From positions 1 to 64,000 of the forward strand of contig JAUCBJ010000246.1 in NCBI GenBank assembly GCA_032718475.1: a DNA stretch of 64,000 nt, written 5' to 3'. Of this stretch, positions 3,901 to 63,755 are shown one piece after another (position 1 is the first letter of the stretch; the number at the start of each line of letters is the position of its first letter). The DNA comes from Nemertoderma westbladi (taxonomy: Eukaryota; Animalia; Xenacoelomorpha). Position numbers and translations under genes: made by a program. Below the pieces are notes generated by a model that worked only from the letters and a program-made list of their open reading frames with translations, did no database searches and was not told the DNA's origin.

Positions 3901-4045
3901 ACTTAGTATTCTATTGGTTATATCTCCATTATTCTAGAAAGTAATTATTTCCCATGGGAGATTTAAAATTGAAACAGTTATCATGTTTGAAAAACTGTCC
4001 CCGAATTTAGATTAACTGCATCAGCCGACCAAGAAAAGTCTGAAT

Positions 4046-5958: not shown

Positions 5959-5959
5959 G

Positions 5960-28550: not shown

Positions 28551-28590
28551 CTCCCCCCCATGCTATCTTCCCGGTAAGAAGATAGCATCC
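28551..28590 (-). other. Polypurine tract preceded by a perfect hairpin
   Basis: Minus strand ATGCTATCTTC-TTACCGG-GAAGATAGCAT-GGGGGGGAG|TGTTAGC. Confidence 0.88.
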
Positions 28591-29790: not shown

Positions 29791-30396
29791 CTATTATTTT
29801 TAATTATTTAATTATTTATTATTGTTTATTTAAATTAAATAATTATTTTTGTGGGAAGGGCGTCTCGCCCTCATTCCCACCCCCCTCAGTCCAAAATATT
29901 GGACGACTAAACCTCTTAACTAGGGCGATTCTTCCAACAGGCACTCTCCCACTGCTGCTCTTGTAGGTCCTGTAGGATTCGCCGCACTCTCTTCGCCAAT
30001 TCCATCTCACCAGGAATTGGTTCTCCCTCTTCTGCCACCCTGAAATCGGGTCTCTCCGCCGCCTTCTTAACTAGCTCGTCTCCTGGCATCAAAATGCCAC
30101 CTCCCTCCTTGTTGTCTCCCGCCGGCAGAATGAATAGAAAGTGAAAGAACAGGCAAAACAGGAGGTACAACACCAGTCCTACCCCTCTCCATCCTGCCTT
30201 CCTTCTCGACTTCCCCCTTGTCGGTATGCCTCTAAACCGGACCGGCATCTCTTCCGGACACTCCTCTAGACACTCCTCCAGACACTCCTCTGGAGTGTTG
30301 TCCTCCGGACACCTCGCCGTCCGCTCCGCTCCATCTCCATACCGATGCTTGCTGGGAAACCTACTCTCCTCTGCCCACTTTCTTACTGTCACCTCC

Positions 30397-33300: not shown

Positions 33301-35051
33301 TCCCTCTTGTCGGACACTCTCTACCCCCTTTCTCTCGCCACTAATCTTCTGTGGTGGGGCGCCCGTAGCCCCCCCCCACCCGCCACTTCTAACTTCACTA
33401 CCTCTTACTACACTTCTACACCCCTCTTGTGGGGCATTCTCTGCCCCCCCTCTCTCGCCGCTAATCTCATGTGGTGGGGCGCCCGTAGCCCCCCCCCCCC
33501 ACCCGCCACATCTAACTTCAATATCTCTTACTTCGTCTCTACACCCCTCTCTAGTCGACACACTGTCTCTACTACGGCTGGGTCTATTCACCCCCGCCTC
33601 TCTCCCTACTACTGCGAGGCCTACCAGGCCCACCCCGGGTTGGCTCAACCCCGCTACCTCCTGCCTACCAACTACGTGGCCTACCAGGCCGCCGTCGGGT
33701 TGGCTCAACCCCGCCACTTCCTGCCTACTAACTACGTGGCCTACCAGGCCGCCGTCTGCCGGGCTATACACGTCTGGCGCGTTCACATTAATAGCACCAT
33801 TCCCAATATTATTTGTTAATCAATTAAATTATTAGAATTTGAAACGGGATTATTATTTAAATTATTTAAGTTAGAATTATTATTATTTTCAAAATTTAAA
33901 TTGCTATTCGAATTATTTGAATTATTTTGATTATTCTGAATATTTGAATTAATATTATTATTTGAATTTAAACTTAAATTACTACTACCGGGTAAAATAT
34001 TTCCTGTAATAAAGGGATTAGGGTTATTTACTACGGTACTATTAATACCAATATTTCCTAACGCACTACTACTACCCCCCTCACCCGTACGGTTGCTGTA
34101 CGTACTGTACGTGTACCGCACGCTCTGTTCTCTTGCCTCACGCTCTTCGCGTTCACTCTCTTGCTCCTTCCTTCTCCCCATTATCCACTCTAATTCTTCC
34201 ATTTTTAATTTATATGCCATGCGTTCACTCTCTCGCACCCGTCTTTCTTTTGCGGAGGATGTAGCAGACTTATAGGTTGCGACGGACTCCCGCCGCCCCT
34301 CCGTCCTACTAACTTTCCCCCGCTCTCCGGGGTTCTCGCTGACCAACGAGACCGAATCCTCGGAGCTAACCTCGGATTCGCCCTCGTGCGGTCCCGCCCA
34401 ACCCACTAACTTAACTTCCCTGGCATCGACTAAGTATGGCCCTATGTACACTACACCAGGCCCCATACCCCTACGTTCCCATAGCCCAAACAGTTCGAAG
34501 GCAACCCCTCTCGCTCTCTCCTCGGCCAGTTCTCCCTGCCCAGAACGCACTAGGTAATCAAAGTATCTGTTCGACTCACCTAGTCGTCTCCTCAACTTCA
34601 CCTGGTCTATCTCAGCCCCTCCTCTAGCTTCCTTCAGTTGTTCCCGGGTCGCGGCGTAGGCTCGTCGAAGTCGATCAGAAACCCCGACATCCTCGTCGCC
34701 GACCTCTCCTCTCTCCCTCCGGGTTCGGCGTCGTACCGTCGGCTCCACCGTTGCCGTTCCGGTGGGCCGTTCGTCGCCCTCGGTCTGTGGCTGACCGGCG
34801 ACATCGGCATATCGACCGCCGCCCTGTGTCGACTCGTCTCTCTCCTCCCCCGTCTCGCTCTCTCCTCTACTCGACTCGCTCTCTCGCTGTAGACGACCCC
34901 CCACATCTTGGTTCGCCGGGTTGCTCGTTATCGACGTGGTCGACGTAGCATCGACCGGCGTCGTGGGTCCGTATCGTCTCGCCGTGGCCTCGCGGATCGT
35001 TAGATCGTCGTCCGGGGTCCGCGGCGGTGTCGCTTCTCCTCCTCTACTCAT
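30397..35051 (-). CDS. Bel/Pao Gag-protease polyprotein, broken into ORFs 33816-35051, 33172-33786, 32127-33278 and 30397-32256
   Basis: DUF1759-like capsid, CQLH..HKTRSC and CHRC..GH..C knuckles, protease LMLVDSGAAFTLV..IIVGMD..TPFGWTLSGP. Several breaks coincide with poly-C runs. Confidence 0.88.
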
Positions 35052-35113
35052 CTTCGTCTTCTGTGTTCTGTCTGTGTCTGGCAGTTACAGTTCGGCAGGC
35101 CTAGAGTTAAGAC

Positions 35114-35652
35114 TGTGACGGGATCCGAGAGGATCCCGGTTTATCCGGTGTTGTTTCGTACGCGTCCCCGCCGTGTGAATGAAAGAAAAGAGTTTGTCGT
35201 TCTTCCAGTGTTATTGATAATATGTATATGAGATAGACGGAGTAATGCAGTAATGATAGCACAGTATACCGGTAGTGATATGGTAGTATATATTGGTGAC
35301 GGCGGTGATGGTCTTAACTGTCACCGTTCTGCCTGACTGTACTGAGATGACTGAATGGGTATTGCATCGACCGGTAATATATATTGCACGGTGGCCTTAT
35401 AACTCTACCTAGCCGATGCCTTCCCCCCATTGGCTAATATCCCTGTTGGCACCCTTTGGAGTGTTTCCCTTCACTCCTTGTGTTCTCTCTCGGTTAGGGG
35501 TTTGGCCCCTGACCCTCCATTGTGTGTTTCTCCTTCCCTTCCCACTTTATTGGGGTGACACGAGGTTGATATTGGTAATCAACCTCGTGCTCCCAATATT
35601 GCTTAATGGCTCACTCTATGGGTTTGTGTTAGCGGAATTGGATAAGCTAACA
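35114..35652 (-). repeat. 5' LTR of the inner element
   Basis: TG..CA ends. On the minus strand: CCAAT, TATA-like (35376-35383) and TCAGT initiator (~35352) at canonical spacing. U5 terminal hairpin CGGGATCC-N4-GGATCCCG. Confidence 0.97.
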
Positions 35653-36433
35653 TCCCCGTCCTACTAACTTTCCCCCGCTTCCCGGAACTTCCTCCGACCG
35701 ACGAGGCCGAATCCTCGGGGTTAACCTCGGATTCGCCCCCTTCAGGTCTGTTCCAACCCACTAATTTTATACCCCGGGCATCGACCAAGTATGGCCCTAT
35801 GTACACTGACGCTACGCTAGGTTCCATACTCCCACATTCCCATAGTTCGAACAGTTCACTGGCAACCCCTTTCGCTCTCTCCTCGGCTAGTTCTCTCTGC
35901 CCGAAGCGCATCAGATAATATAAATGTCTGTCCGACTTACCTAGTCCTGACTTTAGTTTTACCTCGTCTATCGTCTTCCCCTTTCTGGCCTCGTCTAGTA
36001 GTCTCCGGGTCGCGTTGTAGGCCCGTCGAAGTCGCTCAGAAACCCCGACGTCCTCGTCGCCGACCTCTCGTCCGTCTCTCCGGGTTTGACGTCGTACCGG
36101 CGGACCCACCGTCGCCGTTTCGGTGGCCCGTTCGTCGCCCTCGGCCTGTGGCTGGCCGGCGACACCAGTGCGTCGACCCCCGTCCCGTGTCGACTCGTCT
36201 CCGTTCCAGGCCCCCCTCGTCCTGAACTGCCGGATGACCCGTTACCGATGGGTCCGGCGTTGTGGGCCTGTATCGCCTGGTTGTGGCCTCGCGGATCGTT
36301 AGCTCTTCGTCCGGGGTCCGCGTCGGTGTTATCTCTCCCGACTGACTCATCTCGGTTGGTGATCGGTGGAGTTCAGCTAGCTAGGGCAGCAGTTGTTGCA
36401 GTTTAACTAGGGCAGCAGCTCGGTTTTAGTTAC

Positions 36434-45141: not shown

Positions 45142-46386
45142 TGTAAAAGCTTTTGTGGGATAACTGATACGTTTGCCTTTGCTGGCCAGTTCCCCCCAGG
45201 CGCTGGAATACTCTAAAAAGGTTTTCTAACTGTATATAGATTCCCCTCGCCCGCAAGGTACCTTTACAGGTGTTTTAACGGACATAAAAATCATTCTGCT
45301 ATATACGTGTTTTGGCGGACATGGTAAGGCAAAAAACCTGTAATGCACCAACTACCTTTCACAGCTTAGCCGTGATAATTCATATTACGACATCTAACAG
45401 CTGGTTGCTGACATGGAAACAGCCATTGGATGTATGGTTCTTTGTTTGGCTTGAGCCAATCAGAGCGATTTTTCCTGTCGACGTGTAGCTTTTAGTCGAT
45501 CATAAGGAGAGTGTTCAGTCTTAAAGTTTCTTACTTGATACTTTGTTGTTATTGCTGTCTAAGCCAGAAACACCGGCCTTTCGGTAAGAACTCTAGTAAA
45601 CTGCTTGAATTATCGAGAGTATAAACTGTTACCTTAACGAATCGAACCTTAACGCATCTTAACATACTTACTTAATTTAATTGCATTAATCATATTGTTT
45701 GTACTGTTATTTTACCGTCAGTTATTAATTGTACCTATTTGTTGATGGAAATATTGCTCTTTGGATAATACGGATAAATCACCCAAATTCCCAATTTTCT
45801 TGATACACTACAGGTTAGAGAGACCGGTTATACATAACAATTGCGATTTATATTAATGTGGTGTGTATTGAATCCAATGTTATTTAGCAGACCCTACGTG
45901 AGTCAATTACTGCTCTCTTTATGTGTGATCAAATATACTGACTGTCGGCAGAATAGTGTGTATGATCGTGATTGGTAACAAAGTATTTCCTAAAGAATAC
46001 GCTTTATACTTTAATCATAAGCAGTATCGTTGCGTTTTAGTATAAGTCTTAGTTCTGTTTAAATAGATAAAGTGCCACGTCCTAAAGGAACTGTTAATAT
46101 TTCCCGAAAGCCAATAATATCTGTCAGAGATTAATTTATTAACGATCTATCGAATGGTATAGTAGGTATACACTGCAACCTTACACTGCAATAATAAAAT
46201 TCAAGCATCCGAATTCAGCCTCCCGGGTGTAGATCCATCGGGTGAATGATCGCGCATGGGCTGCCTTCGGCTAATGTTTTGCGTATTAGCATAAAATATT
46301 GTCGTATGCTAAAGTGGTTTTAATTAACTAAAAGACATATAAATTTTGGCAGGTTAAACTGCTAAAGGTCTTCAAAAGCGCGAACA
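45142..46386 (+). repeat. 5' LTR
   Basis: Matches 62511-63755, two substitutions noticed. CCAAT box near 45456 and TCAGT initiator-like motif at 45515-45519. Confidence 0.97.
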
Positions 46387-46399
46387 GTAACAGTTTATA
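46387..46399 (+). other. Non-tRNA PBS-position sequence complementary to own LTR 45620-45632
   Basis: GTAACAGTTTATA vs TATAAACTGTTAC, 13/13 complementary. No TGG after the LTR. Confidence 0.8.
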
Positions 46400-46683
46400 A
46401 TCTTATTGCAGTAAGCAATAAGGTTGCAAAATACCGTAGTGACCGGTAAACCTGAACCGGTACTTCTGTAAGTCAGTAGGCCTAACTGTCATCACCGGTA
46501 CCGGTACTGCTGTACAAGTACATTAGTATTATTCGATTTTGATTGTTGTATACCGGTAGGTCTTGGTACTTAATCAGGGAACGGCCGCCCTGATTTTTTA
46601 TTTGAGATTCTACTTATTTCTGTCGGTTTTATTTACTAGTAGGCTAATATTGAGCAGAAGGCGTGTGACCCTGCTCAGATTGT

Positions 46684-47257
46684 TCAGATAATTGTAGGCT
46701 GAGCTGCTGTCTGACTGTTGTTGAGTTTGGAGAGATTGCGGTGTGTGTAGAGTTTGTCTGATAAAGTGCCGTTAGTAAGTTGGGGCAGCCATAAGCGGTA
46801 AGGTCAATCCCCTCTTAAAGAATAAGTCGTACTACCGTGTTAGAACGCATACTAACTAACAGTTTCAGAGTCTGCATATACCGTAGTTTATTTAGGCTTG
46901 ATCGTAGTCTGCCAGTGTTTCAGCCTGTGTTTGTTTGTGTGGTCTGTTCAGGTACCGTAATAGTTATTATTCAAATATTTGTAGGCTGGATTGTTGTCTG
47001 GCTATTTTTGGGTCTGAAGGGATTGCTGCGTGTGTAGAGTTGGTCTGATCAAGTGCCGTTAGTAAGTTGGGGCAGCCATAAGCGGTAAGGTCAATCCCCT
47101 CTTAAAGAGTAAGTCGTACTACCGTGTTAGAACGCATACTAACTAACAGTTTCAGAATCTGCACATACAGTAGTTTGTTTAGGCTTAATAGTAGTCTGCC
47201 AGCGTTTGGTTTGTATTTGTTTGAGTATTCTGTACGGGTAGCGTAATATTTATTATT
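46684..47257 (+). repeat. 287-bp direct repeat in the 5' leader with a near-identical ~90-bp core
   Basis: 46771-46860 vs 47058-47147 differ at about one position, while the flanks are more diverged. Confidence 0.9.
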
Positions 47258-48567
47258 CAGAGTTTATGCGATTATTCGCAACATTCATGTCCCCAAGTTT
47301 ATTCCTACAGTAATTGTGCTTGTTATACATACCGTTATAGTTAAACTAACCCCGGTACTACATCAGGGCTGCTTGGCGTAGGTAAAGACTGACGACTTTG
47401 TGCTTCGGTCACTCCAGCAGATGCCGTGGTTCTTTTAACTGTTCAAGTATATTTAACTACTGATTATTTGTTATACCGGTACTTGTACCTAATTTAGGGT
47501 TTAGTGTACAGTGCTTTCCGAAGTAATTAGTGTAGGCAGTATATTTGTATTGTAAAGTGGTTGATAGGCACATTCGTTAGCTCTATTAGCTTCTGGGTAG
47601 GAACAATCCGTGATACATAACGTAGTACCTATAGCGATACGGTTATAGGTCGTCAGGCGGTGGTATTTTCCTATCTGGACAACGCAGTATATTTACTACT
47701 ACTTATTATTTAAATACCGTAGTACCCTGTCCTTTGTAATAACCAGAAATCTAACCCTTTGTTGGACTGGTTTGTAGACTTCCTGTAAAATTACCCTAAA
47801 AATTTCGTACGTAATATTTTGTTGTGTTTAATTAGAGAATTAATCTCACCCGTATCGTAAGTAATTTGTAGTATTAAGTAACTTAGGTAAATTAGAATTA
47901 TCAGTTTTAGTGTCAAATAAATAGCACTTCACTTAGAGGCGTTCAGCTTCTGTGTAGTGACTCCCCCAGAAATAATAACATTTATTTCAAATATTGACAA
48001 AACCCATTTAAACGGGTATATAAATATTATAAATCAACTCAAACGATTTATAAATAGTAGGCCTGCCATACAACAACTAGGTCTTACTATCAGTTGGACT
48101 ACTGCTTAAATAACGGTAATAAAGTAAGTTAAAGTAACTAAGTAACCCTAAAATATTCAGGAATTCAATTATTATAAAAATAATTGACATACCGGTACTT
48201 ACCATAGGCTTATTATATTTATTTCTATAAATTTGAGCTGAAATCATACCGGTACTCTGTAATTAATTCTAGTTCATAATTATACTTACATGCTGTAAGT
48301 GTAAGCTGTATACCGGTATTCATTATAGGCCTACTATATATATATATATATTTGTGCTAAAATTATATACCGGTACTCTGTGACACATCTAGTCTGTAAT
48401 AATACTTATATATTATAAGCATACCGGTATTCTAATATATTGTGTATATATCACGTTACACCGAGTAACGGTACCGGTAATAAATCGCTAGGCTTGCGGT
48501 CATACTGAATTACTAGACTTGCTTTAACTGAAAATATAGTAGTAGACATTCAACTGTATAACTAAAC

Positions 48568-51500
48568 ATGTCTGACACTCAGCAAAACCTGTCGGACAGT
48601 CTGATCGATACAACTATCTGTGATTCAGATAGGAGTGTGGAGCGAATAAGAAAGGAGTTCGGCTCACCTCCTACTGTAAAAAAGGTCATCCCTCCAGTAG
48701 TATCAGACCCTAGGCTAGTCCACCATAGGTCCATCATAGGCACTAGGGCACAGGTAAAACGGGACCAAGAGGCAGTTGTCTTATCGCAGCAACATCTTGG
48801 TCAAGAACCTACTTCCCAGCGACCCGATAGCTCCAGCAGTTCGGATACTGTAGAGCTGACTCCCGAACATGGAGTGCAGATGTCTGATACAGTCTACTCG
48901 GACCCCCTTCTTACTCTTCCTGCTGCAGTGCTAACTACTATATTCATTGCGGTGGAGGAACATCAAGCCGACTGGGCGAAGAATAAGCGAGCGACCCAAG
49001 ATAATTACGCGGGATACGCCAGGGAAGAATTGATATCTATTGTTGAATCACAATGGAACTTTCCCGGACTCGGACTTCCGTTGGATATGTCCGAGGCTAC
49101 TTGGGAAGAGCTACACAGGATGGGAGTGGCTAAAGATACAATGGATCCAGCTGTTTGGAAGAGGTCGGCAGCAGGATATGTGCAGGGATTCTTCGGATCC
49201 TTAGAGCGATTGGAAGAACAACTGTTTCGACAACCTCACGGACCTCAAGAGCAGGAAGAGCTGCTATACCAAGTACGCGAAAGAACCCTACGCATTCGAC
49301 TAATCCTCTCAGCCTTTGAGGAAACTTCCAAAAGAAGACAGGACACTTCGCTGCAGGTTGCTGTCAAAACTTGGCTACATCGGGTAGATCTCAAAGTACA
49401 GGAAACAGCCCCGTGGAAATCCCAGCTGGCTGAGAGATCAACCTATGAAGAACCAACTGATGTCACCGAACCAACTGATGTCACCCGTGCTCAAGAGGAA
49501 AGCGAAGAGGCCGCCGAGAAACCGCGAACTAGAGACGCTATCGACATTTATTTGTCCGACTATCAGCGATTCCTAGGAGACGAAGAGTTGAGGAGACGGC
49601 TGTCTGGACTTTCCCCTAATAGTGAAGGAACCAAGCTTGTGTTGGACTCAATCGATGCCGAAATGTTAGCTGCAAACCAAGCTGAATGTGATGAAAAACT
49701 CCGCCTCACTAGAGTCCGAGAAGAACAAATAAAGAAAAGAAGGATAGAGGAACAAAAAACGGCGGCTATGGCGGCGGCTATAGCAGATGCAGAAGCAGAA
49801 AGTAAAGCAGCAAAGGCGGTGGCAAAGGCAGATGCAGAAGCAGAAAGGAAGGCAGCGGCTGCAGATGCAGAAGCAGAAAGAAAGGCAGCGGCTGCAGATG
49901 CAGAAGCGGAAGAAAAAGCAGCAAAGGCGGTGGCAAAGGCAGAAGCAGAAGCAGAAATGAGAGCATTTGAGCAGACTGCTCAACTGGAGTTGGAGAATCT
50001 GCAAGAGACACAAGACAGTATAACTAAACAGTTTACTGCTAATCAAATGCAGATGATGAGAAAATCTACTCCCAAGCGCCAGGGGTACACATCCTCGGAG
50101 GAAGGCGATACTACCGACCCTGAAGGCGGAGGAAATAGATCCCATCTAAGTAGACGTAGAAAAACATATTACCGTCGCAAATTGCCTGATTTGCCCCCAG
50201 CTGTTAAAAGACAGCTAACTAGCACAGATTTAGGTAGTGCAGAACCCATGGAACAATTTATCCAGGTCAAAAGACTCCCTACTATAGTCGATGAACCTGA
50301 AATAATTAGGCCTGTAGTTCCCAAAGTCACTTCTGTGCTAGAGACCCCTACACTTCCAGAGCTTAACTCTAAATTCCCTTTACATAGCACTACACTGCCT
50401 GTACCCGGTGGAACAGTCCATGCAAATACCCCTGTCCAGATAGCAGAGAGAGAAATCAATAATTTGTCTCCCGTCGTCCCGCGTCAGCCCGCTACTATGT
50501 TGGCGACTCCCGCTTCGGCGGTTGAGTGGGTGGAAGAGGGACGGCGGGGGATGAATCTTCTGCTAGGACAGATGCAGGAGACTGTCCACCAACTTAAGGG
50601 AACAGTGAGGGAAGGTAGAGCAGAGTTGCAAGAAGTGCAGCAAAGTATCGCGCTAGAACGCGACAAATTAGTCAATATACAAAAAGGCATACCAATGCCT
50701 CCTGTAACATTGTGTCAACCCGTTAGGTCTGAAGTATTACATGCGCAAGGTGTGGAGCCTACACGCATCTATACTGCTAGTGAAGTTGAAACTCCTATAG
50801 CAAACCCTATTAAGGGTGATTATAGACCTGTTATTAATGATATTCCCTATAAACCTGATAATGATCCGAGAAATTTATATACCGATAATTCGATATTAAA
50901 TAACACGATGGCCCAAGAAAGCTTTACGCGTCAGATGGCTAGAACAGAAGCCCGCCAAGCGGTCAAAGTGGGAGAGATCGTCAAATTCAATGGAGATGAG
51001 ATGAAATGGTTACCTTTCAACGAATATTACAAAGATAGCATACAGAACTCTGTACTATCTAACGGAGAGAAACTTAGATTCCTCATCAAGTGCTTGGAAG
51101 GACCTCCCAAGTTAATGGCGTTAAAGTTTATTGGACATCCAGAAGGATTAAGACAAGTTTGGGATACATTAAACATCAGGTATGGTAACAAAGATAACAT
51201 AGCTAAGTATTTGTATACAAAGTTAGTAGCCCCCCGACACTTCCTTAGTAGTGGGATTATAGAGTTTTCCGATGAAATACAAGAGATCTGTAGACAACTG
51301 GACTGGTTAGGTAAGTCGCACGAATACCAGAGTTCCATGGTTATTGGAGCCGTAGTCTCTACTTTACCAAAGGGTGGAGTATGTACACGCTGGGACAAGA
51401 AAGTGTTGTACATGAATGAACAACAACGACGAAGTCCTACCATGGCTGATCTCATGTCTTTCTTAGATGGTTAAGTCAAATTACAACTCATCAAGCAGTC

Positions 51501-54500
51501 CAGAGAGAAAACATCGGAAAATAAGGTAAGTGAGAAACCTACTTCTAGGAGAAGAGTAACACCGGTGTGTTACACTGACGACGGCGAAAGCCAAGCTTCC
51601 CAAGAAGAGGACAGCGGGAAAGATACAGACAGATCGTATTATGTTGACAAAACCTCCAAGGACGTAAGTAAATACAAAGCTCGAACCAATAATAGGAGAG
51701 AACAAGTTACTAAGACCCCTCCTCAGTCTCCTAACAGAATGCGCGGAAGAAAGCCCGAAGAAAGAACGAGAGTGCATCAGACTACCCAGGGTAAAGTAAG
51801 TAACATAAAACCTAACTGTGCGCTGTGTGACGGGACCCACCGTTTGAGTGCGTGTGCGGAATTTCTAAAGAAATCCCTTGTAGACAGACGTACAGTTGTG
51901 TGGGACAAGCGGTTATGTTATAATTGCCTCAGACCAGGACACCAACGGCGAACCTGTTACTCCGACATAAAGTGTGAAAAGTGTGGTGCGAAACATCACA
52001 TCTTGTTACATAGTGAGTTCGAACGAGACAAGCCGAGTCAGGTAAGTGAGTCCGAACTACATGTCCAATTCAGTGATGTAAACGACACTGATCAGGAGTC
52101 TGAGATGGAGGGATTTTATACTGACGAATTCTCCGACGTCAATGAATCCTGTTATCTAATAAACACCACGGTGTATCGAGCACTTACTTACGAAAAGGAT
52201 ATCAGCGAGGAGTTTCCCCCTACTACTTTTACCAAACAATCATCTTGGAAAGCTCCTACTTCCAATGTAGGAATCAGAGAATTTCCTGTAGTTCAGGTAA
52301 GAGTTCATGGTATTAACAAAAGCTACATAGTGAACGCCCTACTTGACTCAGGCAGCACAGGAACATTCATAGATCAAGAGCTAGCCGAAGATATCTTTGC
52401 TGGACAACCCAAGTTCCGGACTAAATTGAATATGTCAGGAATTATGCAGGTTTGGAAATCTACCCTGACGGCAGATTACTATGTAGGTGAGTTGTCCACC
52501 CCCCAGGATAAGTTAGGAACACAAGGTGTAAGGTCAGTAAAAATGGTGGCTATAAAGAACTTTGCTACTACTCAAGCAGACCTTTATAATTGGGACGAAG
52601 ATGAGAGCGTCCAACATCTTAAGATACCTCGATTCCAGACAGATTATCCTGGAGTGCAAATACTTATCGGCCAAAACGCGCACGAGGCGCTCGAAACATT
52701 AGAGAAACGGCCTGCTCAACCACAGCCACTGCAAACTTATGCGGTAAGAACTAGAGTAGGTTGGTACTTTACTGGCCCTTCCCGTAGAACTTTAGAAGAA
52801 AGAATGCCACACGAACAAATAGATCAGGTAAGTGATTGGGAAGAGGAAAACAGCGAAGTGGACGAACCAACTGAGGGAACCCCATACTCCTCAGATAATG
52901 ACGACATCTACCAACTCTTCGAAGAAGAGAAGACAATTGACCTACTTACCGAAAACCAAACTTGGAAAAACCAAACGAACCTATGTCAATTGATTCGCCC
53001 AACGGAACCCACTATTTATAATGACGAACTTAATGACGAGGTAGAGCGCTACAACGCTAGAACTCGGGACGAACTCGCCGTACGATTCTTTACCCAAGAA
53101 TTGGTAGAACCCAATTCATACGACAAAGCCCTGTCGATAGAAGAAGAAAGAGCCAAGCAAATCCAGGAAACAACCACACGTTTTTTAAAAGATCAAGGTA
53201 GATATGAAATCGGACTACCCTTCCGAAAACGTGAACCCAGATTTATAAATAACAGACCCTTGGCTGAGAAAAGAATCAATCAATTACATCGACGTCTGAC
53301 GGCAAACGCTTCAGCTAAGGAAATGTACCAGACTCAGTTGAAGAAATTTATCACAAAGGGATATGCGGAGCGAGTACCGGAAGGAACTCCCATAACTGAA
53401 AGGACTTATTATCTAACACATCATTATGTTCCCAAACCCGGTAAACCCCATGAAGTACGGGTTGTATTTGATGGCTCCGCCCTATATATGGGCCAATCCC
53501 TTAATTCCGAGTTGTTACCAGGACCCAACTTGCTCCAATCTTTGTTGGGGATACTGTTGAGATTAAGACAATATTCCATCGCGTTCGCCTCCGATATAGA
53601 AGGAATGTTCCTACAAGTCAAGGCGTTGGATCGTGATAGAGACAGCCTAAGATTCCTGTGGTGGCCTGAAGGAGATCTCAACCAGACAATTTAAAGTCCC
53701 TTCCATCAGTAAAGGAAGCCATTGATGTCGCGAAAGGGATGGTTGAGTGTTTGAAAAGAGGTGGATTTCGGTTGACGAAGTTCACCAGCAACTCCCGTGA
53801 GTTTCTGGAAGCAATATCTGTAGAAGACCGGGGGTCAAAAGATCTCGACTTAATACATGATGATCTTCCGGAAACCAAGACACTTGGCTTGAAGTGGGAC
53901 ACAGAAAGAGACATCCTGTTTTTTCAGTTAAAACAGCGAGATAATCCAGTTCGGACCAAACGGATTTGTTTAAGTATTCTGAGCACTTATTTCGATCCCT
54001 TGGGATTTATTAGCCCAGTTATATTGATTGCTCGGAGTTTAGTACAACAAATGTGGCTGGAAAACCACTCGTGGGACGATCCACTCAAGGGAGAACTATT
54101 AAAGAAATGGATGAAATGGGAGGATTCGCTACCTGCCATCGAGAACTTTATAATTTCCTGTTCATATTTTGGTCATGTTCTCCCTACGTATTCCTATCAA
54201 CTCCATGTATTTGGAGATGCCAGCGATATGGGGATCGGTATCGTAGCATATCTGCGAGTCGAAACTCCGGATGGAATCAAAGTTGCCTTGGTTACCTCTA
54301 AGGCATTGATTAACAACAAGCTTAAGGTTCCTCGAGCGGAGTTAAAAGCAGCATTATACGCTACCGCTATCGGACGGAATGTAACAGAACAGATCGATTA
54401 TCCACTGGAGAAAACCGTTTATTGGACCGACGCTTTACTTGTATTGGAATATATAACGAATGAAGTCTGTCAGTTCAGCGTCTTTGTTACTAACAGAGTG

Positions 54501-56561
54501 GCCATTATTCTTAGTCGCACAACGATAGATCAATGGAGACATTGCCCTGGTACGATTAACCCAGCTGACATCGCCTCCAGAGGAGCAACTCCACAGGAAC
54601 TGATAGATACCCCTGACTGGTTGGGTGGACCCGACTTCTTGAGCAAGGAAGAGGATGAATGGCCTCCTCACCTTACTACGGCTGAGATTAGACAAGCCAA
54701 GGGAGCGGAGAAAGTCAAACCCAAAATTCGGACAAGTAAATCGAAGTTATTTAAACCTACAATCGACCTATCTGTACTACATACTGCCGAGAACGATACT
54801 TCGGATCCACAATCCCTCACCACAAACAAATCTGTTGTGGAAATTAGAGATAGAAATTGGAAATCTGAGATACCAGACGTCTCGCAAGGAATCTCACCCC
54901 TGCTGCAGAGAGCACTGCATCATTACAGTTCCTGGAATCGTCTCTGTAAAGCTATCACATACTTAAAGAGATGTTTTCACCATCATTACTCCAGGAAGAA
55001 AACCACTAGTGATCCTGCTCCGGTAACATCTGCGCAAGTTCATGTTATTAAAGATCTACCTAAGTACAAGATATCAGACCGGTTTCTAAAGGAGAAGATC
55101 AGCTACCAGGAGCATGAAGAAACTAATAAGCAGATACTGAGACTATTGCAATGCTATGAGGATTCCGATAGGTATTTTCTGCTATTAAGAAATCCGCAGA
55201 TGCGCTTAAGGGATCGCTTCTCTAGCACAATGATAGATGGGTTAATACGCGTTGGAGGAAGACTTACCAACGCTCCATTATCTTTTGATACTAAATTCCC
55301 TATACTCATTAGTAATCTTGAAGTACAAATCAAGATGATTGTAGATGTTCACAGTAAACTGTATCATGCTGGTAGAGAACGAGTTCTTAGCGAGATTCGA
55401 ACCCGCTATTATTTTCATAAACCACGTAGAGCTCTGAATCAAGTTCTTAGGAACTGCATACCTTGTAGGAAAGTATTCAGTAGGCCTTTAACACAGCGAG
55501 AGGCAGAATTACCTAGGGAACGAGTAAGCTTTTATGAACCACCCTTTACTAATACTGGTGTGGATTTATTTGGCCCTATTGAAGTATATCGTGCTAGAAC
55601 TATAATCAAGAGATGGTGTGTAATCTTTGTCTGCATGACTTGTAGAGCTATCCATCTCGATATGGTGAACGATCTATCTACTAACAGCTTCGTCTTATGT
55701 CTACGACGACAGATCGCTCGTTTCGGCACTAGCAATACGATGAGATCCGATAAGGGAACGAACTTCATTGGTGCCAACAACGAAATCCAGGCTTACGTAA
55801 AGGACTGGAATCAAAGACAGGTGGATGACCAGCTACGGATAACGGCGTCTAGCTGGACCTTTAACGCCGCCGACGCCCCTTGGTGGGGAGGAAGTTGGGA
55901 GAGATTGATTCGAAGTGTCAAGACCGCATTTCACTTTATAGTGCCGTGCCGCGCATATCTCACCGACGAACTTCTACGGACGTTAATGGAAGAAATCGCT
56001 GCCTATCTTAACGAGAGACCGCTTATGCCAGTCTCATCGAGTGTCGACTCCCTGGAAGCGCTAACACCCTCGCATTTCCTACTTAAGAAACCTGTAGCCA
56101 TGCTCCCAAAATCCGAGATTGCCGACGGAGATGAATACTGTCGTCGAACTTGGCAGCTTATGCAGTTGCTATCCCGTCGTTTCGCTGACCATTTTGAGAA
56201 ACATTATCTGCCCACGCTACAACTTCGAACTAAGTGGTTTGCGCAGCAGGAAAATGTCAGCGCCGGAGACATGGTCCTTATTGTAGATCCGGACCTCCCA
56301 CGTAGACGGTGGCAGATCGGTCGTATCATCGAGACGCACATCTCGGAGGATGGTCTAGTGCGCTCAGTAGAACTCGTCGTAATGCGGCGTAACTTCAAGA
56401 AACCCGGAATAATCTTTGAGACGCAACAACTCAATCGCCCAGTTGGTCGTTTATGTTTGCTGGAAAGAGACAGAGAACTCTCCGGAAACTATGGAAGACA
56501 AGACACTCTTCCCACGACCACCTCCCTAATACCTCAAACATCTAGGGACTCCCAAACGTGA
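48568..56561 (+). pseudogene. Bel/Pao gag-pol polyprotein with an in-frame stop (51472-51474) and a deleted RT catalytic core (~53690)
   Basis: KFNGD..F..LRFLIKCLEG..YG capsid. Three knuckles CALC..H..C, CYNC..GH..C, CEKC..HH..LH. LLDSGS protease. YYLTHH..VRVVFDGS..SLNSELLPGP..DIEGMF..LRFLW. No YVDD. KTLGLKW, FDPLG, HVFGDAS, PRAEL, WTDA, NPADIASRG. Integrase GVDLFGP, SDKGTNF, GGSWERL. Confidence 0.95.
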
Positions 56562-57106
56562 TACGTCTGGAGTGGGTGTATGACTATATTATTTTATCTA
56601 TTTTATTACATTTTATATGCGAACTTTATTATGTACTTTATTATAATCGTTTTTATTTAATTTTAATTAGTAAAATGTTATTTTAGAATGTTAGTAGATT
56701 AGTGCAATATATTAATGTTTATTACGTACATAATTACTTATAATATATATTTAGTGCGACGGCAAGAAGTAATTATTTTCTCTTTCCTTACTGTCCGTAT
56801 TATATTATAAATGCGAGACTATAGTAAGATGACATGTCAGTACTTCTTAAAGTACAATAAAAGCCACTACTATATTTAAGTATTATTGGTAGGCAGAGTA
56901 TTAGGAATGCAAAGTTCAGATCCTCGTGTCTCGGCTAAACCAAGCTCTGGGTAGACCTTGGAAACGACTTGCCTCTTCACACTGACATTGCTTCGTGCGA
57001 TATTGCTCTTCTACCTTATAACAAATAATACATATAGTAGCGTGATGTCCCTCTAACAGTAGCGTCAATCGCAAATAAATCTGTTAAACTTTTGACCATC
57101 TGTAAT

Positions 57107-57370
57107 TCTAGTCGATTAAGATATCGTGGCACCCACCGATATACTTGAAAGACAAATTCTAGAATCAGTGGTTAACGTCCCCAGACAAGTTCTGGAATAA
57201 ATTGGTGCCCATCCTAAATATTAATTTAATATTTGTTAAAATCTGTAAAATCCCGATCCTTTAAAATTTCTAGTCAATTAAGATATCGCAGTATTTACCG
57301 ATATTCTTAGAAGGACTACTTTACAGAATTAAGGATCCTGAGTCCCCAGATATGCTCTGGAATAAAATTT
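57107..57370 (+). repeat. Diverged ~100-bp direct repeat with hairpins in the pol-ORF3 spacer
   Basis: TCTAGTC.ATTAAGATATCG...CGATAT...CCCCAGA-N5-TCTGGAATAAA occurs at ~57107 and ~57269. Confidence 0.7.
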
Positions 57371-58178
57371 ATGTCAATTTAATATCAAATAATAAAATTC
57401 ACGGGAATAAATTTAAATTCATATTCAAATGAATTTCATAAATTGTCATTTTGTGCAATTTACAACATTCCCAAAATTCCAGTAATTAATAGATCATGGG
57501 AGCGGAGATTCATATTGAGTGTACTAGAGTGTGAGAATCTCCAACATATAGTCAATAGCCAATAAAATTTATAAAATCATGCATAAAGAAGATATTGACA
57601 ATTAAAGAATTACTATTAAATAACATCCCAGATCTGTATACATGAGAATTGCCCTAATTCTACCGCTAGTTTTCCATAATGTCACCATGGCAACACCCAC
57701 GCTAGAATTAGAAGCAAATTAAAGGAACAATAAAAGCTTGCCCCATTGCGTAGCATAAGAGTATACATAGCGCTATTAGTATCCAAGGATACATAGTAAT
57801 AACGTGACATTCTGGAAGACACTGACTAACGGACAAATGGCATGCGTGTGTGCAGTAAGTAATGATTGTATGGAATTTGTGCGTTTGTAGGTGAATGTTA
57901 CTACTAAAGTGTGTTTACCGTAGCTAATCGCAATTGTAAAATAGCCCTAACTCTACCGAGATAACCTCAAGTGGATTCAAGCCTTTGGGACGGACAGTGG
58001 TGGGACTTGTGCCGGTTATCGTTGTCGTGCTGTTGCTACATGTTGGCGTAAACACTGCGACAGCGGTACATCGGCGCTGAGAAACCCACTGTCCAGGGGC
58101 AAAAAGCCTAATAGGCAGCGACGCCCGCTTGCCTAAAATATTAATTTATATTGATATTAACAAACTCAGATAGCAGAT

Positions 58179-61100
58179 ATGATGGAATTGATAGAAGATG
58201 ACCTTGGTATTAGAGAGCGATATACTCTACCTTTACAAGCGTTTGTGGATAGCTTGATACGCGGTGAAGCCGATCCGACTATTACGGAGGACGATGGTCG
58301 TTATATCGAACCGCCGATGTCCCAGGAACAACTTACGCGTGAAGTGGACTATAGAAAATTCACCGCTCGCTATACGAATCGCAATGGTACGTATATGGAC
58401 TTCTTAACTACCGGCCATCCCACCGATTTACATGATACCGATGATGTAGACACCGAAAGGGAAATGGTTTTATTTAAATATCATACCCAGCGGAATCGTA
58501 ATGACAAACCGAGAATAGAACACGAGAACTCTATTCGCAACCTACTCGACAGAGAAAACGTTGAAGAACCCGATAAGCGTATCAACTTCAACGACTACGT
58601 GGAATTTTTGCGGGAAACCTATCTCAATATTGCCAGTCAACAGAACCTAGAGACTCGATATCCTCAAGGTATACATCACGATCCCATGGTAGAACTCAAA
58701 CGACTCTATTTCACCATGATGTATCTTACTGCAGATCGTCCACTGCCTGTTGTCCCGGACAGTTTTGAACAAATGGAAGAGTATTGCAAAACTGGTGAAC
58801 GATCACCCGCGTTTCCTCTGCAGGACGTACGTCTTTGGTATTATTGTGACTCATGTCCTAGACCTAACCAGCAAACGGAAAGACATAAACATCCGCGGAG
58901 ACGTTGTGCTAAACACAGTTTTACGCGTTATACTTACGGGAGTTTCGAGCGAAACCTGTTCGACGTATCACCTACGATCGCCCGTCTAAAACGATCGCTA
59001 AATAAACCCATGATCAGAGTTCCGGAATACTCGGTCAGACCTCCCCATTTCCCCGTGAGACCTCAAACTCTTGATCCTAACAGTCTCACTGATCCTCCCG
59101 AGTTATACTCACTGTTCAAGGATTTGGTGTTGCCCGAGCAGTTAATCGGTGGTGTTCCTGAGGTAGGTTCGTTGGATATTCGACCATCCTATTTGACCGG
59201 ATTGGGACGCGGACATCTAACATCGCCATTTAATCCTTACAACCGGCCAGGATTAACTCCGATACAACCTGCCACGGAAGTCGAGGAGAGTGTCATCAGA
59301 AACGCTCTAGACGCCATCCGACAGAAAATCGGAAAGGGAACCCAGGATTTTCTAGAGAAACGTAAATTACAGCAGCAGGTCCAATCGGTGAAAGAGCTAG
59401 CCTTGCCGCAGTTTGATAGAGAAATCCAAAACCTCGAAGAGGACATCGAGCTTGGACGTACGTATTCTCTACAGGAGTTTCTGGAAGAACGCTTACAGAA
59501 ACAGGCGGAGGAGAATCAAATGGAGGAGAGACATACGGAAATGGATGAGAGAGAAGAAGCCGCTTTAGCCCAACCCGAAACTCAGATACTCATAACAGAT
59601 CTCTACTCTAAAACCGTCCGTCATCCCTCGATGGTTCCGCATTTCGGAGACAAACTTTTCGCAAAGATACAACCCCAACCGGTTGATATCAGCATAAGAT
59701 CGCAAAATCTTATCGCTGACGCTCCTATGTTACAGCATCCGCCAATCGAGGCCGCTCGAGTTGACGGTATACTCGTTGAACCTCCGGACAATCGAGCGGA
59801 TCTTGTCCGTCGTATGGTACATGATGTCAACATACGCGCTAGACCTTTACAGAACTCTTTTTATGGAATTAAAGATCACCCTTATTACGTTAATCTGACT
59901 CAATATTATATGGTAAAACCAGAAGATCCGACGCATGATTTAAAGTTTCTACCGCTAATAAATCCTCTAGACATTGTCGAACTCGAACAATTGCAAAAAC
60001 ATCTGGATCAATTAGTAAAGGCAAACTCATTTCGAAAACCATACAATGTTTCTCGAATAGAGAAGGATACAGAACCTCCTTATAACCTCGATGGATTTAT
60101 TAAAACTCGATTAGTCCATTGGAATCTAGACGTATTATTTGAGGAGGAGAAAATCCAAAGATATGGAAATGTGGAGACGTATACCACTCGATATATGAAG
60201 TATAGTGATCTCCCTGACGCTAATCAATGCGCCACCTTGTGGCATCCGGTAGGGATGACCCTCGAGAACGCCACCAAAGAGTGGAATGAAACTCTTAATA
60301 TCATTGAGATGTATGGAGTTGTTACTTATGATAACGAAGGTAGCGTTCCAATCGGAGAATTAGGAACTACGCGCATGATACACATACGTGGATTAGCTGG
60401 CTCCACTCACGTGTTTACGCGAGCGTGTTCCGACGTGATCGATTATTCCTTCGAAACTCTCACCGAAACGCAAAAGAATCTCCGACATGGACAATTCGAA
60501 CTCGCGCAGCGTTACGTCATTGACACCGAACGCAAACCGGCCATGGGTATCGATGGATCGATGTTACCCCAGCCCGTTCTCGAGATGTTATTCAACGAAA
60601 GAATCGTTAAAATCGGCTCAGCTGTTTACGGAGATCTCCAAAACGACTTTCGGAATATGGAGAATATCCCCTATCCTTTCGTGGATACTCAGCTGATAGC
60701 TCCTTGGGCCGAAGGCCGAGGTTTCTTTCGCACCATGTATGCTAATGTGTCTAGCAACATTACAAAGGTGCAACGAACTTCCATCGGACATCTTGCCTTT
60801 CAGGAATACGGGTGGAATTTCAAGGTCGGAAATCCCATCAACTATCAACAAGTATACGGAGACCATTATTCTCGATTATACTTTGACGGACCGTTGACCG
60901 CACCTGGCGCCGTGTATAGCTTCATGAGTGTTCCACTCCGTCCCTCCTTAGCTATCTACACGATCTTCGAAAACACCGCACTTTCCGGTTGGCTATCCGA
61001 TGTGTGCAGTCGTACTATACGCGCCCATCCATTAATCCTTGGGACCAAACTCGCTAAGCTAGATGAACATAATAAATTCATCCGCTTTGAATGTTTCCGA

Positions 61101-62432
61101 CGGTTTTTAACCCCGTTTCGCAACGTGGATAGCCAATTCAAAGACCGCGCTTTGACCAAGCTCAGCTTAAGAGACTCGGGTGCAGAGAAGTTAGATAGCG
61201 CTGGATTCGCTATTTTCAGAGACATTTGTATAATAAACCTGCACTCCTCGGTTATTCAAAGACCTCGGATCCCCACCGGTTATTCTGTCGTGGAAATTCA
61301 GACGGTAGGTCCACTAGAGGAGACGGCCATACCTACCTCAACTATACAAGGGGAAGACGAACCCATATGTTTAGAATCTGAAGAGATTCAGCCCCCCACG
61401 TCTCGGAGTAGCGATAGCGACTACATATTGGAATGGTATCAAGGTCCCCAGTGTCTTACTGCGTATGATTATCGCCATGCCAATTATGTTTCTAGACAAC
61501 GTTGTCGGCTGTGCGCATCGAGAGATCATATTACGTCTATGGACACCAACGATCTTTGTTCCTATTTCCACGAGCAACCGTCGATGGAAATCTATTGTGC
61601 ATATTGTCGGCTTAATAATTTGCACATTTTTGCTGTCTGCCCCCAATTTATGACTCAATGCCATCATTGTCAATTAAAGGGACACGCCAGCTTTGATTGC
61701 CCCTTCAACCATGATTTAGAGAGCGTAGATGAAATGATTGTACTACGTTATATCAGAGCTTGGGAAGCGAACGCTGATTTACATTGTGATTCACGCCATC
61801 GCTATTATCCTGGACGCGCCTACGAAGGAGTTTATGCGTTCCATCCATATTTGTTTGCCTCCGTCGAGCAGAAATCGCGCCTATCAAGTTATGAACTATT
61901 GAAGCGCGTTGGAGAATGTATTTCAACCAAATATGTACGCAAATTCCTCAGGAGCATTAATCCGAGTGACATCCATTCTTACAACTTAATAAACTTTATC
62001 TGTCAAGACCCTGCATATGGAGACTTATTCGTCAACTCACACCCTGAGTTACAAGAAGTATATCGACGGCCTTACGAGTACCGAGCCCGCGAACGCGAGT
62101 TGGAAAGAACCATTAAACCAAGGAAGTTTCTAACTACCTATGGTCCACCCACGGCCCTCGTGCAGACCACTCGTACAGGACCCGTAAGAGCGGCTGTCTT
62201 GAAACGAGCTCTCAAAGCCGCTAGACCCCTCTCCCCGGACGTTGAGGTCAATCAACCCGGTACTTCGACCGGCGGATATACCGATCGCAATCCCATACCT
62301 TCTGATGCAATCATATTGCACCCTTCACCCAGGAGTTATAGCCCTCCTCGTAAAGTGGCTCGCCCCAAAGAGAAAAGGACTCTTGCTAGCTTTAAAAAGC
62401 TGCGTAAACGCCGTCCGCGCAAGAAAGACTAA
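58179..62432 (+). CDS. Intact 1417-aa accessory ORF3: CxxC..CxxH finger, coiled coil, DEDDy 3'-5' exonuclease-like domain, three C-terminal Cys/His fingers, basic tail
   Basis: VVTYDNEG (ExoI), LPQPVLEMLFNERIVKIGSAVYGD (ExoII), FVDTQLIA, SIGHLA..YGWNFK, PL..LAIYTIFE (ExoIII-like). CRLC..H..C, CAYC..H..C, CHHCQLKGHASFDC. KKLRKRRPRKK. The ORF is certain; the domain call is by motif recognition. Confidence 0.85.
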   Translation: MMELIEDDLGIRERYTLPLQAFVDSLIRGEADPTITEDDGRYIEPPMSQEQLTREVDYRKFTARYTNRNGTYMDFLTTGHPTDLHDTDDVDTEREMVLFKYHTQRNRNDKPRIEHENSIRNLLDRENVEEPDKRINFNDYVEFLRETYLNIASQQNLETRYPQGIHHDPMVELKRLYFTMMYLTADRPLPVVPDSFEQMEEYCKTGERSPAFPLQDVRLWYYCDSCPRPNQQTERHKHPRRRCAKHSFTRYTYGSFERNLFDVSPTIARLKRSLNKPMIRVPEYSVRPPHFPVRPQTLDPNSLTDPPELYSLFKDLVLPEQLIGGVPEVGSLDIRPSYLTGLGRGHLTSPFNPYNRPGLTPIQPATEVEESVIRNALDAIRQKIGKGTQDFLEKRKLQQQVQSVKELALPQFDREIQNLEEDIELGRTYSLQEFLEERLQKQAEENQMEERHTEMDEREEAALAQPETQILITDLYSKTVRHPSMVPHFGDKLFAKIQPQPVDISIRSQNLIADAPMLQHPPIEAARVDGILVEPPDNRADLVRRMVHDVNIRARPLQNSFYGIKDHPYYVNLTQYYMVKPEDPTHDLKFLPLINPLDIVELEQLQKHLDQLVKANSFRKPYNVSRIEKDTEPPYNLDGFIKTRLVHWNLDVLFEEEKIQRYGNVETYTTRYMKYSDLPDANQCATLWHPVGMTLENATKEWNETLNIIEMYGVVTYDNEGSVPIGELGTTRMIHIRGLAGSTHVFTRACSDVIDYSFETLTETQKNLRHGQFELAQRYVIDTERKPAMGIDGSMLPQPVLEMLFNERIVKIGSAVYGDLQNDFRNMENIPYPFVDTQLIAPWAEGRGFFRTMYANVSSNITKVQRTSIGHLAFQEYGWNFKVGNPINYQQVYGDHYSRLYFDGPLTAPGAVYSFMSVPLRPSLAIYTIFENTALSGWLSDVCSRTIRAHPLILGTKLAKLDEHNKFIRFECFRRFLTPFRNVDSQFKDRALTKLSLRDSGAEKLDSAGFAIFRDICIINLHSSVIQRPRIPTGYSVVEIQTVGPLEETAIPTSTIQGEDEPICLESEEIQPPTSRSSDSDYILEWYQGPQCLTAYDYRHANYVSRQRCRLCASRDHITSMDTNDLCSYFHEQPSMEIYCAYCRLNNLHIFAVCPQFMTQCHHCQLKGHASFDCPFNHDLESVDEMIVLRYIRAWEANADLHCDSRHRYYPGRAYEGVYAFHPYLFASVEQKSRLSSYELLKRVGECISTKYVRKFLRSINPSDIHSYNLINFICQDPAYGDLFVNSHPELQEVYRRPYEYRARERELERTIKPRKFLTTYGPPTALVQTTRTGPVRAAVLKRALKAARPLSPDVEVNQPGTSTGGYTDRNPIPSDAIILHPSPRSYSPPRKVARPKEKRTLASFKKLRKRRPRKKD

Positions 62433-62502
62433 CTGTTTAGAGTATTTTTATATTTTAGAAACTGTGATTTTGTATATTTTATAGACTTAAATCCCATTTT
62501 CT

Positions 62503-62510
62503 GGGAGCGG
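62503..62510 (+). other. Polypurine tract
   Basis: GGGAGCGG directly before the TGT of the 3' LTR, overlapping a small TCCCA-N5-TGGGA hairpin. Confidence 0.85.
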
Positions 62511-63755
62511 TGTAAAAGCTTTTGTGGGATAACTGATACGTTTGCCTTTGCTGGCCAGTTCCCCCCAGGCGCTGGAATACTCTAAAAAGGTTTTCTAACT
62601 GTATATAGATTCCCCTCGCCCGCAAGGTACCTTTACAGGTGTTTTAACGGACATAAAAATCATTCTGCTATATACGTGTTTTGGCGGACATGGTAAGGCA
62701 AAAAACCTGTAATGCACCAACTACCTTTCACAGCTTAGCCGTGATAATTCATATTACGACATCTAACAGCTGGTTGCTGACATGGAAACAGCCATTGGAT
62801 GTATGGTTCTTTGTTTGGCTTGAGCCAATCAGAGCGATTTTTCCTGTCGACGTGTAGCTTTTAGTCGATCATAAGGAGAGTGTTCAGTCTTACAGTTTCT
62901 TACTTGATACTTTGTTGTTATTGCTGTCTAAGCCAGAAACACCGGCCTTTCGGTAAGAACTCTAGTAAACTGCTTGAATTATCGAGAGTATAAACTGTTA
63001 CCTTAACGAATCGAACCTTAACGCATCTTAACATACTTACTTAATTTAATTGCATTAATCATATTGTTTGTACTGTTATTTTACCGTCAGTTATTAATTG
63101 TACCTATTTGTTGATGGAAATATTGCTCTTTGGATAATACGGATAAATCACCCAAATTCCCAATTTTCTTGATACACTACAGGTTAGAGAGACCGGTTAT
63201 ACATAACAATTGCGATTTATATTAATGTGGTGTGTATTGAATCCAATGTTATTTAGCAGACCCTACGTGAGTCAATTACTGCTCTCTTTATGTGTGATCA
63301 AATATACTGACTGTCGGCAGAATAGTGTGTATGATCGTGATTGGTAACAAAGTATTTCCTAAAGAATACGCTTTATACTTTAATCATAAGCAGTATCGTT
63401 GCGTTTTAGTATAAGTCTTAGTTCTGTTTAAATAGATAAAGCGCCACGTCCTAAAGGAACTGTTAATATTTCCCGAAAGCCAATAATATCTGTCAGAGAT
63501 TAATTTATTAACGATCTATCGAATGGTATAGTAGGTATACACTGCAACCTTACACTGCAATAATAAAATTCAAGCATCCGAATTCAGCCTCCCGGGTGTA
63601 GATCCATCGGGTGAATGATCGCGCATGGGCTGCCTTCGGCTAATGTTTTGCGTATTAGCATAAAATATTGTCGTATGCTAAAGTGGTTTTAATTAACTAA
63701 AAGACATATAAATTTTGGCAGGTTAAACTGCTAAAGGTCTTCAAAAGCGCGAACA
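62511..63755 (+). repeat. 3' LTR
   Basis: Copy of 45142-46386, followed by TSD ATAAT. Confidence 0.97.

Follow-up and report, generated by a model that had tools for sequence, protein, structure and literature searches.

In the 64,000-nt stretch of Nemertoderma westbladi (Xenacoelomorpha) DNA analyzed here (assembly GCA_032718475.1, contig JAUCBJ010000246.1, positions 1–64,000; hereafter the window), a complete Bel/Pao retrotransposon with long terminal repeats (LTRs) spans positions 45142–63755 of the forward strand (18,614 bp) and contains, after its integrase, a third open reading frame, ORF3 (58179–62432, +). We predict that the 1417-aa product of ORF3 is a zinc knuckle-assisted 3′-5′ exoribonuclease of RNase D/EXD type with the element's own RNA as its main target; the probability of this reading is about 0.35. 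The presence of a divergent RNase D/EXD-type domain with the DEDDy fold in aa ~700–945 is very probable, and the activity of this domain as a nuclease is predicted with some confidence.

The exonuclease domain, including insertions, was delimited at aa ~699–946 (60273–61016, +) from hidden Markov model (HMM), ESM Atlas, profile and model data. The ordered DnaQ-family motifs reported in the original prediction, which had been made from the sequence of the window alone, were present: YDNE at aa 717 (nt 60327), LPQPVLEMLFNERIVKIG at aa 796, D819, VDTQLIA at aa 835, SIGHLA at aa 868 and Y927-x3-E931. The putative exonuclease signature consists of D718 (60330), E720 (60336), D819 (60633), Y927 (60957) and E931 (60969), all on the forward strand. 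Searches of Pfam and of Protein Data Bank (PDB) sequences with ORF3 gave no exonuclease match. The NCBIfam model of RNase D, TIGR01388, matched aa 798–848 of the whole protein with E=0.0058 and the domain alone with E=0.00082. In the ESM Atlas, PF01612 clusters accounted for 25 of 30 matches at 0.92, with a shared-feature count of 157, which is below the level typical of close members. Our own DEDDy HMM assigned 7.0 bits to ORF3 versus at most 4.8 bits in 1000 shuffles, and ORF3 scored poorly (E 0.03) with an HMM of bacterial EXD-like genes.

A single relative of ORF3, P0002, was found among 1.84 billion representative proteins (E=3.6e-6). This protein of 648 aa, encoded on a 9,449-bp contig, is ~25–30% identical to ORF3, lacks its long N-terminus and has the same layout of nuclease, knuckles and basic tail, keeping D-x-E, D, Y-x3-E, the three knuckles and the tail. 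The first ESM Atlas match of P0002, a Euglenozoa cluster of PF01612+PF00098 (0.86), may serve as a lead only. A two-sequence profile of ORF3 and P0002 produced 14 matches with E<=1 in 61 bacterial genomes, 47 of which gave none; ten of the 14 lay on the Exo II region, and the eight of these ten that were checked were PF01612/RNase D genes. The best-scoring match of the profile ran across stop codons. Taken together, support for the exonuclease domain is weak but convergent. The original prediction had called the domain WRN/EXD/Mut-7-like; a fold of DEDDy type, RNase D/EXD-like, is indeed suggested, while the label itself is no better supported than RNase D-like, because the bacterial EXD-like HMM scored ORF3 so poorly. 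The nearest subfamily cannot be named: RNase D was best by HMM, and the top rows of the structural comparison were tied.

AlphaFold modelling followed by Foldseek had been proposed earlier as a check of the domain. The AF2 model guided by alignment A4 reached a predicted template modelling score (pTM) of 0.60, with a predicted local distance difference test (pLDDT) of 79–89 in aa ~802–851, 75–78 in aa ~702–721 and 69–76 in the Exo III helix. The modelled domain had a DnaQ-like alpha/beta fold, with which the alignment-independent sequence lines agree. VIA comparison of this model gave Z of 11–13.3 to RNase D, diDNase, Pol I, Nibbler, WRN, Exd1, TbRND, Rrp6 and Egalitarian, including Z 13.1 to RNase D (rmsd 3.3 over 176 residues). 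Several points speak against the assignment: the single-sequence AF2 model of the domain had pLDDT of 30 and no usable fold, the best E value of Foldseek with the A4-guided model was 1.5e-3, and the structural line is partly circular, since DEDDy sequences formed the guiding alignment.

Among the catalytic positions, those of Exo II and the Exo III tyrosine are secure from the alignments. K811 and D819 occupied invariant columns in alignments A3 and A4 in the form K-x7-D, in agreement with direct alignment to RNase D, and Y927 stood in an invariant Tyr column. The Exo III acid is E931, as claimed originally, and P0002 also has Glu. Since P0002 shares Y-x3-E, this Glu is read as a family trait and not as a lesion of the present copy; with Glu as its fourth acid, the ORF3 domain is classed by sequence as a DEDE variant of this fold and not among the canonical DEDDy members. 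YDNE had been proposed as Exo I, and D718/E720 are favoured, not proven, in this role by the strand pattern and by the alignments containing EXD-like sequences. Another Exo I candidate, VIDTE (aa 778–782), was ruled out as too near Exo II and aligning with the segment of P0002 that follows strand 3. No Pfam match with E<=1 was found in aa 928–1107, where an HRDC domain would follow the nuclease in RNase D or Rrp6.

The following observations weigh against catalysis by ORF3. Asp occupied the position of E931 in 19 of 19 bacterial references of A4, and at the level of literature listings no paper was found with an active example of the Exo III Glu variant in this enzyme family. Exo I fell at D718/E720 in seven of 14 alignments (including five of the five with EXD-like sequences) and otherwise near D755/S757, and its pairwise and block scores did not exceed those of shuffles. 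Egalitarian keeps DEDDy residues that are dispensable for binding RNA and functioning in vivo, according to the available part of 10.1101/2025.08.03.668247. The noncanonical Glu, the uncertain Exo I register and this precedent are all consistent with ORF3 being an RNA-binding adaptor, in which the fold and the knuckles bind RNA without catalysis, as in Egalitarian and Exd1, for transport, packaging or as a decoy, and the N-terminal half forms a scaffold. Egalitarian also had the highest Foldseek query template modelling scores (0.47–0.48), and a heptad-like charged segment was discerned by eye at aa ~366–470. However, ORF3 and P0002, at ~25–30% identity, both have an acid or Tyr at each of the five signature positions, dead derivatives usually lose catalytic residues (Exd1 and Exu in the available part of 10.1101/2025.08.03.668247), and the VIA rows were tied, with Egalitarian at rank 16. 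We regard a purely RNA-binding role as doubtful.

In the exoribonuclease reading, an RNA substrate is suggested by the region downstream of the nuclease. Three CCHC-type zinc knuckles (61503–61700, +), corresponding to the three Cys/His fingers noted originally, were recognized by motif, Pfam and profile; they start ~160 aa after the nuclease and have spacings of CX2CX4HX9C, CX2CX5HX4C and CX2CX4HX4C, so that the first two are altered and the last alone is a canonical knuckle. Pfam zf-CCHC_3 matched a fragment with E=0.006, below the curated cut-off, and in the two-sequence profile the knuckles matched retroviral nucleocapsid (E~0.001) and, weakly, Air2. The C-terminal tail KKLRKRRPRKKD (62376–62429, +) is basic and is also found in P0002; it had been described as resembling a nuclear localization signal (NLS), and while its basic character was confirmed, it may act either as an NLS or as an RNA-binding segment. 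RNA is the putative substrate mainly because TbRND, the mitochondrial RNase D of Trypanosoma brucei, has the same order of exonuclease and CCHC knuckles, and its four knuckles greatly increase both the binding and the cleavage of RNA (available part of PMC7797062). TbRND trims single-stranded U-tails off structured guide RNAs (same source).

A candidate RNA substrate was found in the element itself. No TGG, and hence no tRNA-type primer site, was present in the 60 nt that follow the 5′ LTR. The 13 nt directly behind the LTR (46387–46399, +), at the position of the primer-binding site, were instead the exact reverse complement of LTR segment 45620–45632 (+; 13 of 13 at offset 0), a copy of which lies in the 3′ LTR (62989–63001). 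Such pairing was reached by none of 5000 dinucleotide shuffles and at none of 3776 control positions, and the pair probabilities of the 13-bp helix were 0.86–1.0 in leader folds. With its 3′ end the 13-mer, which begins with TATAAA, pairs to the base adjoining the LTR end, as the start of minus-strand DNA would require. The 13-nt duplex is thus a likely primer of reverse transcription, judging from this pairing, and the self-complementary primer site is a finding in its own right. A tRNA-complementary primer site is typical of Belpaoviridae as a descriptive feature and not as a basis of classification (PMC8742986), and the available parts of PMC554778 and PMC5603734 contain no passages on self-priming.

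According to the preferred reading, the ORF3 protein would be made from a spliced subgenomic RNA. Its knuckles would grip single-stranded RNA, as those of TbRND do, and feed the 3′ end to a two-metal site formed by D718, E720, D819 and E931 together with Y927, and the enzyme would halt at the edge of a duplex. With a 13-mer also in the 3′ LTR, trimming inward from the natural 3′ end of the transcript could leave a 3′-OH paired beside the LTR end; such trimming would need no endonuclease. Primer maturation as the specific job of ORF3, by trimming of element RNA back to the 13-nt duplex, is unlikely, and we consider it still somewhat less likely that a Bel/Pao element has dropped tRNA priming altogether and brings a dedicated knuckle-guided exoribonuclease for priming by exonucleolytic trimming. 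The exonuclease ORF3 and the self-primer may be unlinked. Tf1, a Ty3/gypsy element, reportedly self-primes with the first 11 nt of its transcript, cut by RNase H, and the RNase H of its reverse transcriptase (RT) is said to make that primer; this weakens the link between ORF3 and the self-primer. A further difficulty is that this reading assigns no role to the first ~690 aa of ORF3.

ORF3 itself was, as claimed originally, stop-free over its 1417 codons; the chance of such a frame is ~1e-37 at the local base composition. Related elements sometimes carry an env gene at this position. The product of ORF3 has an acidic N-terminus, no transmembrane or signal segment was found by hydropathy (no dedicated predictor was run), and no env family of Pfam matched. 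The highest 19-residue Kyte–Doolittle mean was 1.34; therefore, in agreement with the original prediction, ORF3 is not an env glycoprotein by hydropathy. Its intactness beside a broken gag-pol had also been presented as notable. The gag-pol frame is indeed interrupted, by an in-frame TAA (51472–51474) and a frame break near 53680, yet two random lesions would both spare ORF3 with p~0.43, so that its intactness is not significant and gives no sign of selection.

Better evidence for ORF3 as a maintained gene came from the comparison of contigs from four sequencing runs (four studies) aligned to the element, of which the best run may be the source. The element belongs to a multi-copy family, and contigs from all four runs covered ORF3. 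Ten of the 12 indels listed (of 59) were in non-coding DNA, which has a share of 12.5%. The sole ORF3 frameshift listed matched in depth a contig from which 2.8 kb of ORF3 is also missing. Diverged pieces within ORF3 (94 differences over 730 nt, 67 over 561 and 50 over 341; 12–15% diverged) were gap-free, and the codon-position GC of ORF3 resembled that of gag and pol. Several observations limit this conclusion: the indel count rests on 12 rows out of 59, and indels are favoured in AT-rich spacers; the eight ORF3 polymorphisms among the 40 listed (of ~2100), five nonsynonymous and three synonymous, are too few to read; and deletion derivatives without 1.9–2.8 kb of ORF3 exist among the contigs. 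Among internally deleted family members, pol deletions 52904–54526 and 54713–56426 each occurred in several runs, and ORF3 deletions 58541–61351, 59919–62273 and 60136–62015 each came from one run.

An N-terminal part of ORF3 was found in a second, distant Bel/Pao element of the window (2–3429, +). Behind its integrase (2–1875), a frameshifted remnant (2715–3429, +) resembles aa 170–316 of ORF3 (sum E 2.8e-4; none of 500 shuffles for each of the two pieces) and occupies the same place. The corresponding segment of ORF3 (aa ~170–316; 58686–59126, +) contains a Cys/His cluster (C223, C226, H236, C243, H246). The integrases of the two elements are 30–38% identical; therefore, ORF3 is by this comparison, at least in its N-terminal part, old and common to distant Bel/Pao families. 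The second element is broken and is cut off at ~3430 by an array of 22-nt tandem repeats; it may or may not have had the exonuclease.

These data bear on the simplest alternative, that ORF3 is a captured gene fragment present merely because the copy is young. Little time for decay has passed with two LTR differences in 1245 positions, both gag-pol lesions could easily have spared ORF3 by chance, and ORF3-deleted derivatives occur. Such a passenger would not be expected to have a homologous N-terminal part in a family with so distant an integrase, diverged pieces free of gaps, indels concentrated in non-coding DNA, or codon-position GC like that of gag and pol, and we consider this explanation highly improbable.

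The abundance of the family is relevant to another possibility, namely that the exoribonuclease is active and shortens or destroys small silencing RNAs of the host (PIWI-interacting RNAs, small interfering RNAs or their precursors), shielding the family in trans. With 88,740 contigs aligned from one run, the family is very abundant. The small-RNA factors Nibbler and Exd1 are among the structural neighbours of the domain, the basic tail could send the protein to the nucleus, and an arenavirus exonuclease suppresses host immune signalling (available part of PMC7968707). On the other hand, copy number in rotifers shows no clear relation to the DEDDy ORF3, and small RNAs still cover the elements in question, as far as the available part of PMC5408684 goes, and counter-defence leaves the self-complementary primer site unexplained. 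We hold such a role to be possible, tentatively.

The length of the element raises the question of editing of DNA, in which the domain would proofread RT products of a long genome or trim complementary DNA (cDNA) 3′ ends for integration. At 18.6 kb, the element is unusually long compared with 4.2–10 kb in the Belpaoviridae profile of the International Committee on Taxonomy of Viruses (ICTV; PMC8742986), and a proofreading ExoN enabled large nidovirus genomes (available part of PMC7968707). Folds of Pol I, WRN and diDNase were among the tied top VIA rows, and DEDDy domains of Dada DNA transposons are proposed to trim DNA ends (available part of PMC3706591). However, Sinbad-group Bel/Pao elements, with a median of 7,253 bp, reach 21,008 bp (supplement file 9 of PMC3118150, available part), so the element lies in the far tail of lengths but is no record, and a claim that it is larger than any Bel/Pao was dropped. 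The exonuclease domain and RT are not fused, polymorphism within the family is high, and RNase D gave the best HMM match; we consider editing of DNA improbable. The exoribonuclease acting on element RNA remains our preferred reading.

The remaining parts of the element were as follows. The 5′ LTR (45142–46386, +; 1245 bp) starts with TG and ends with CA, the 3′ LTR (62511–63755, +) differs from it at two positions, and the target duplication ATAAT of 5 bp was found on both sides; therefore, the insertion is very recent. Candidate signals of the 5′ LTR, with putative roles, were an initiator (Inr)-like TCAGT at 45515, a donor-like GGTAAG at 45583 and the only AATAAA at 46193. The leader before gag (46387–48567; 2.2 kb) contained a direct duplication of ~242 nt (46679–46920 and 46966–47207). 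The N-terminal part of gag with DUF1759 (48568–51474, +) ends at the in-frame TAA and is followed by a frame with gag zinc knuckles, aspartic protease and the N-terminal part of RT (51475–53694, +), terminated by the frame break, and by the remaining pol (53670–56561, +) with the PF05380 region, integrase and DUF5641. Matches above Pfam cut-offs were PF03564 (DUF1759; E 2e-12), PF05380 (Pao; E 2e-35), PF17921 (integrase zinc finger; E 1e-7) and PF18701 (DUF5641; E 4e-20). Because of these domains, in the order protease, RT, RNase H and integrase, the element is assigned by sequence to Bel/Pao (Belpaoviridae).

The RT core is missing from this copy: no YxDD-type motif was found in any of the three frames across 52900–54300. 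It is likely that this copy moved in trans, or that its gag-pol lesions are very recent or are assembly errors. At the pol break other copies differ, as a high-depth contig of sequencing run X3 aligned up to 53679 and continued with 44 non-fitting letters. ORF3 is preceded by an AT-rich non-coding spacer of 1617 bp (56562–58178, +) with two acceptor-like AG sites directly before its ATG, at which splicing may occur; the 15 splice joints listed (of 86) included none that leads into ORF3. ARAGORN found no tRNA.

Elsewhere in the window, two 22-nt tandem arrays, mutually inverted, surround an integrase-core ORF (4677–5351; PF24764, E 5e-74) at 3442–7970, likely a DNA transposon with repetitive ends. 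A GC-rich region on the reverse strand (~24300–36250) contains tandemly duplicated gag-like frames (DUF1759, aspartic protease), duplications of 6.8–7.1 kb and several short tandem arrays, and is likely another rearranged element related to Bel/Pao.

Further searches gave no additional relatives of ORF3. Word-seeded searches of 5.8 billion proteins, which did not extend to fused or split lengths, yielded none among 812 and 1595 candidates for ORF3, and a search with P0002 returned P0002 itself alone among 1122 candidates. No relative locus was found in four scans of viral contigs, two of them with ORF3-based queries, and no ORF3 relative in the scan of genome contigs; in metagenomes there was no true relative, the one locus found (1 of 264) being a short generic EXD-like piece. 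In plasmids and phages, tblastn gave matches with E>=3 only. We also failed to find a published report of a Bel/Pao element with an exonuclease ORF3, subscription journals, Repbase and GyDB being outside the search; the available parts of PMC11662393, PMC6338049 and PMC5718144 describe no Bel/Pao exonuclease. The original prediction had cited precedents in rotifers and nematodes. No report of the nematode Bel/Pao precedent was found in the same search, and PMC5408684 does not contain the word "nematode", while its single word beginning with "Pao" stands outside the passages on DEDDy ORFs. The rotifer precedent is real: Juno and Vesta LTR elements of bdelloid rotifers carry a DEDDy ORF3 with the motif DEED, without demonstrated activity (PMC5408684, available part), and Terminons also carry a DEDDy ORF3 (PMC6431247, available part).

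As far as these partial sources go, the ORF3 described here resembles that of Juno, Vesta and Terminons in its RNase D-like DEDDy domain, its place as a separate frame after pol, the absence of transmembrane segments and one Asp-to-Glu replacement. It differs in its Bel/Pao host, in the position of Glu, which is the fourth acid here (DEDE) and the third in rotifers (DEED), and in its size of 1417 aa, its three knuckles and its N-terminus of 690 aa. Dada DNA transposons also contain a DEDDy domain, but inside a DDE transposase, with canonical DEDD and a proposed action on DNA (PMC3706591). In TbRND (PDB 7c42; VIA Z 11.7 over 186 residues), as in ORF3, tandem CCHC knuckles come after a DEDDy exonuclease; unlike ORF3, TbRND is cellular, has 390 aa, four knuckles and a linker of 28 aa versus ~160 aa, and the likeness is probably a convergent architecture. 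The domains of Egalitarian, Exd1, Nibbler/Mut-7 and WRN have the same fold (Z 11.0–12.3) but 8–17% identity, and none is distinguishable as the donor.

The element is like other Bel/Pao elements in DUF1759, PF05380, integrase and DUF5641, in the order of its pol domains, in its TG..CA LTRs and in the 5-bp duplication, and unlike typical ones in that its third gene is not env, its primer site is not of tRNA type and its length is in the far tail. As is reported for self-priming in Tf1 and sushi, the primer site adjoins the LTR and is complementary to LTR sequence of the element itself; unlike Tf1, which reportedly uses the first 11 nt, the Inr-like motif is ~100 nt upstream of the 13-mer. Exonuclease ORF3s have been published for rotifer elements, and the theme is extended here to Bel/Pao in a distinct form, marked by the DEDE signature, by three knuckles, by a protein of 1417 aa and by being shared among distant families of the same genome. 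The co-occurrence of such an ORF3 with a self-complementary primer site adds to its interest, as does the TbRND-like layout, and the element's own 13-nt primer duplex offers a concrete candidate substrate for the question of what these nucleases do.

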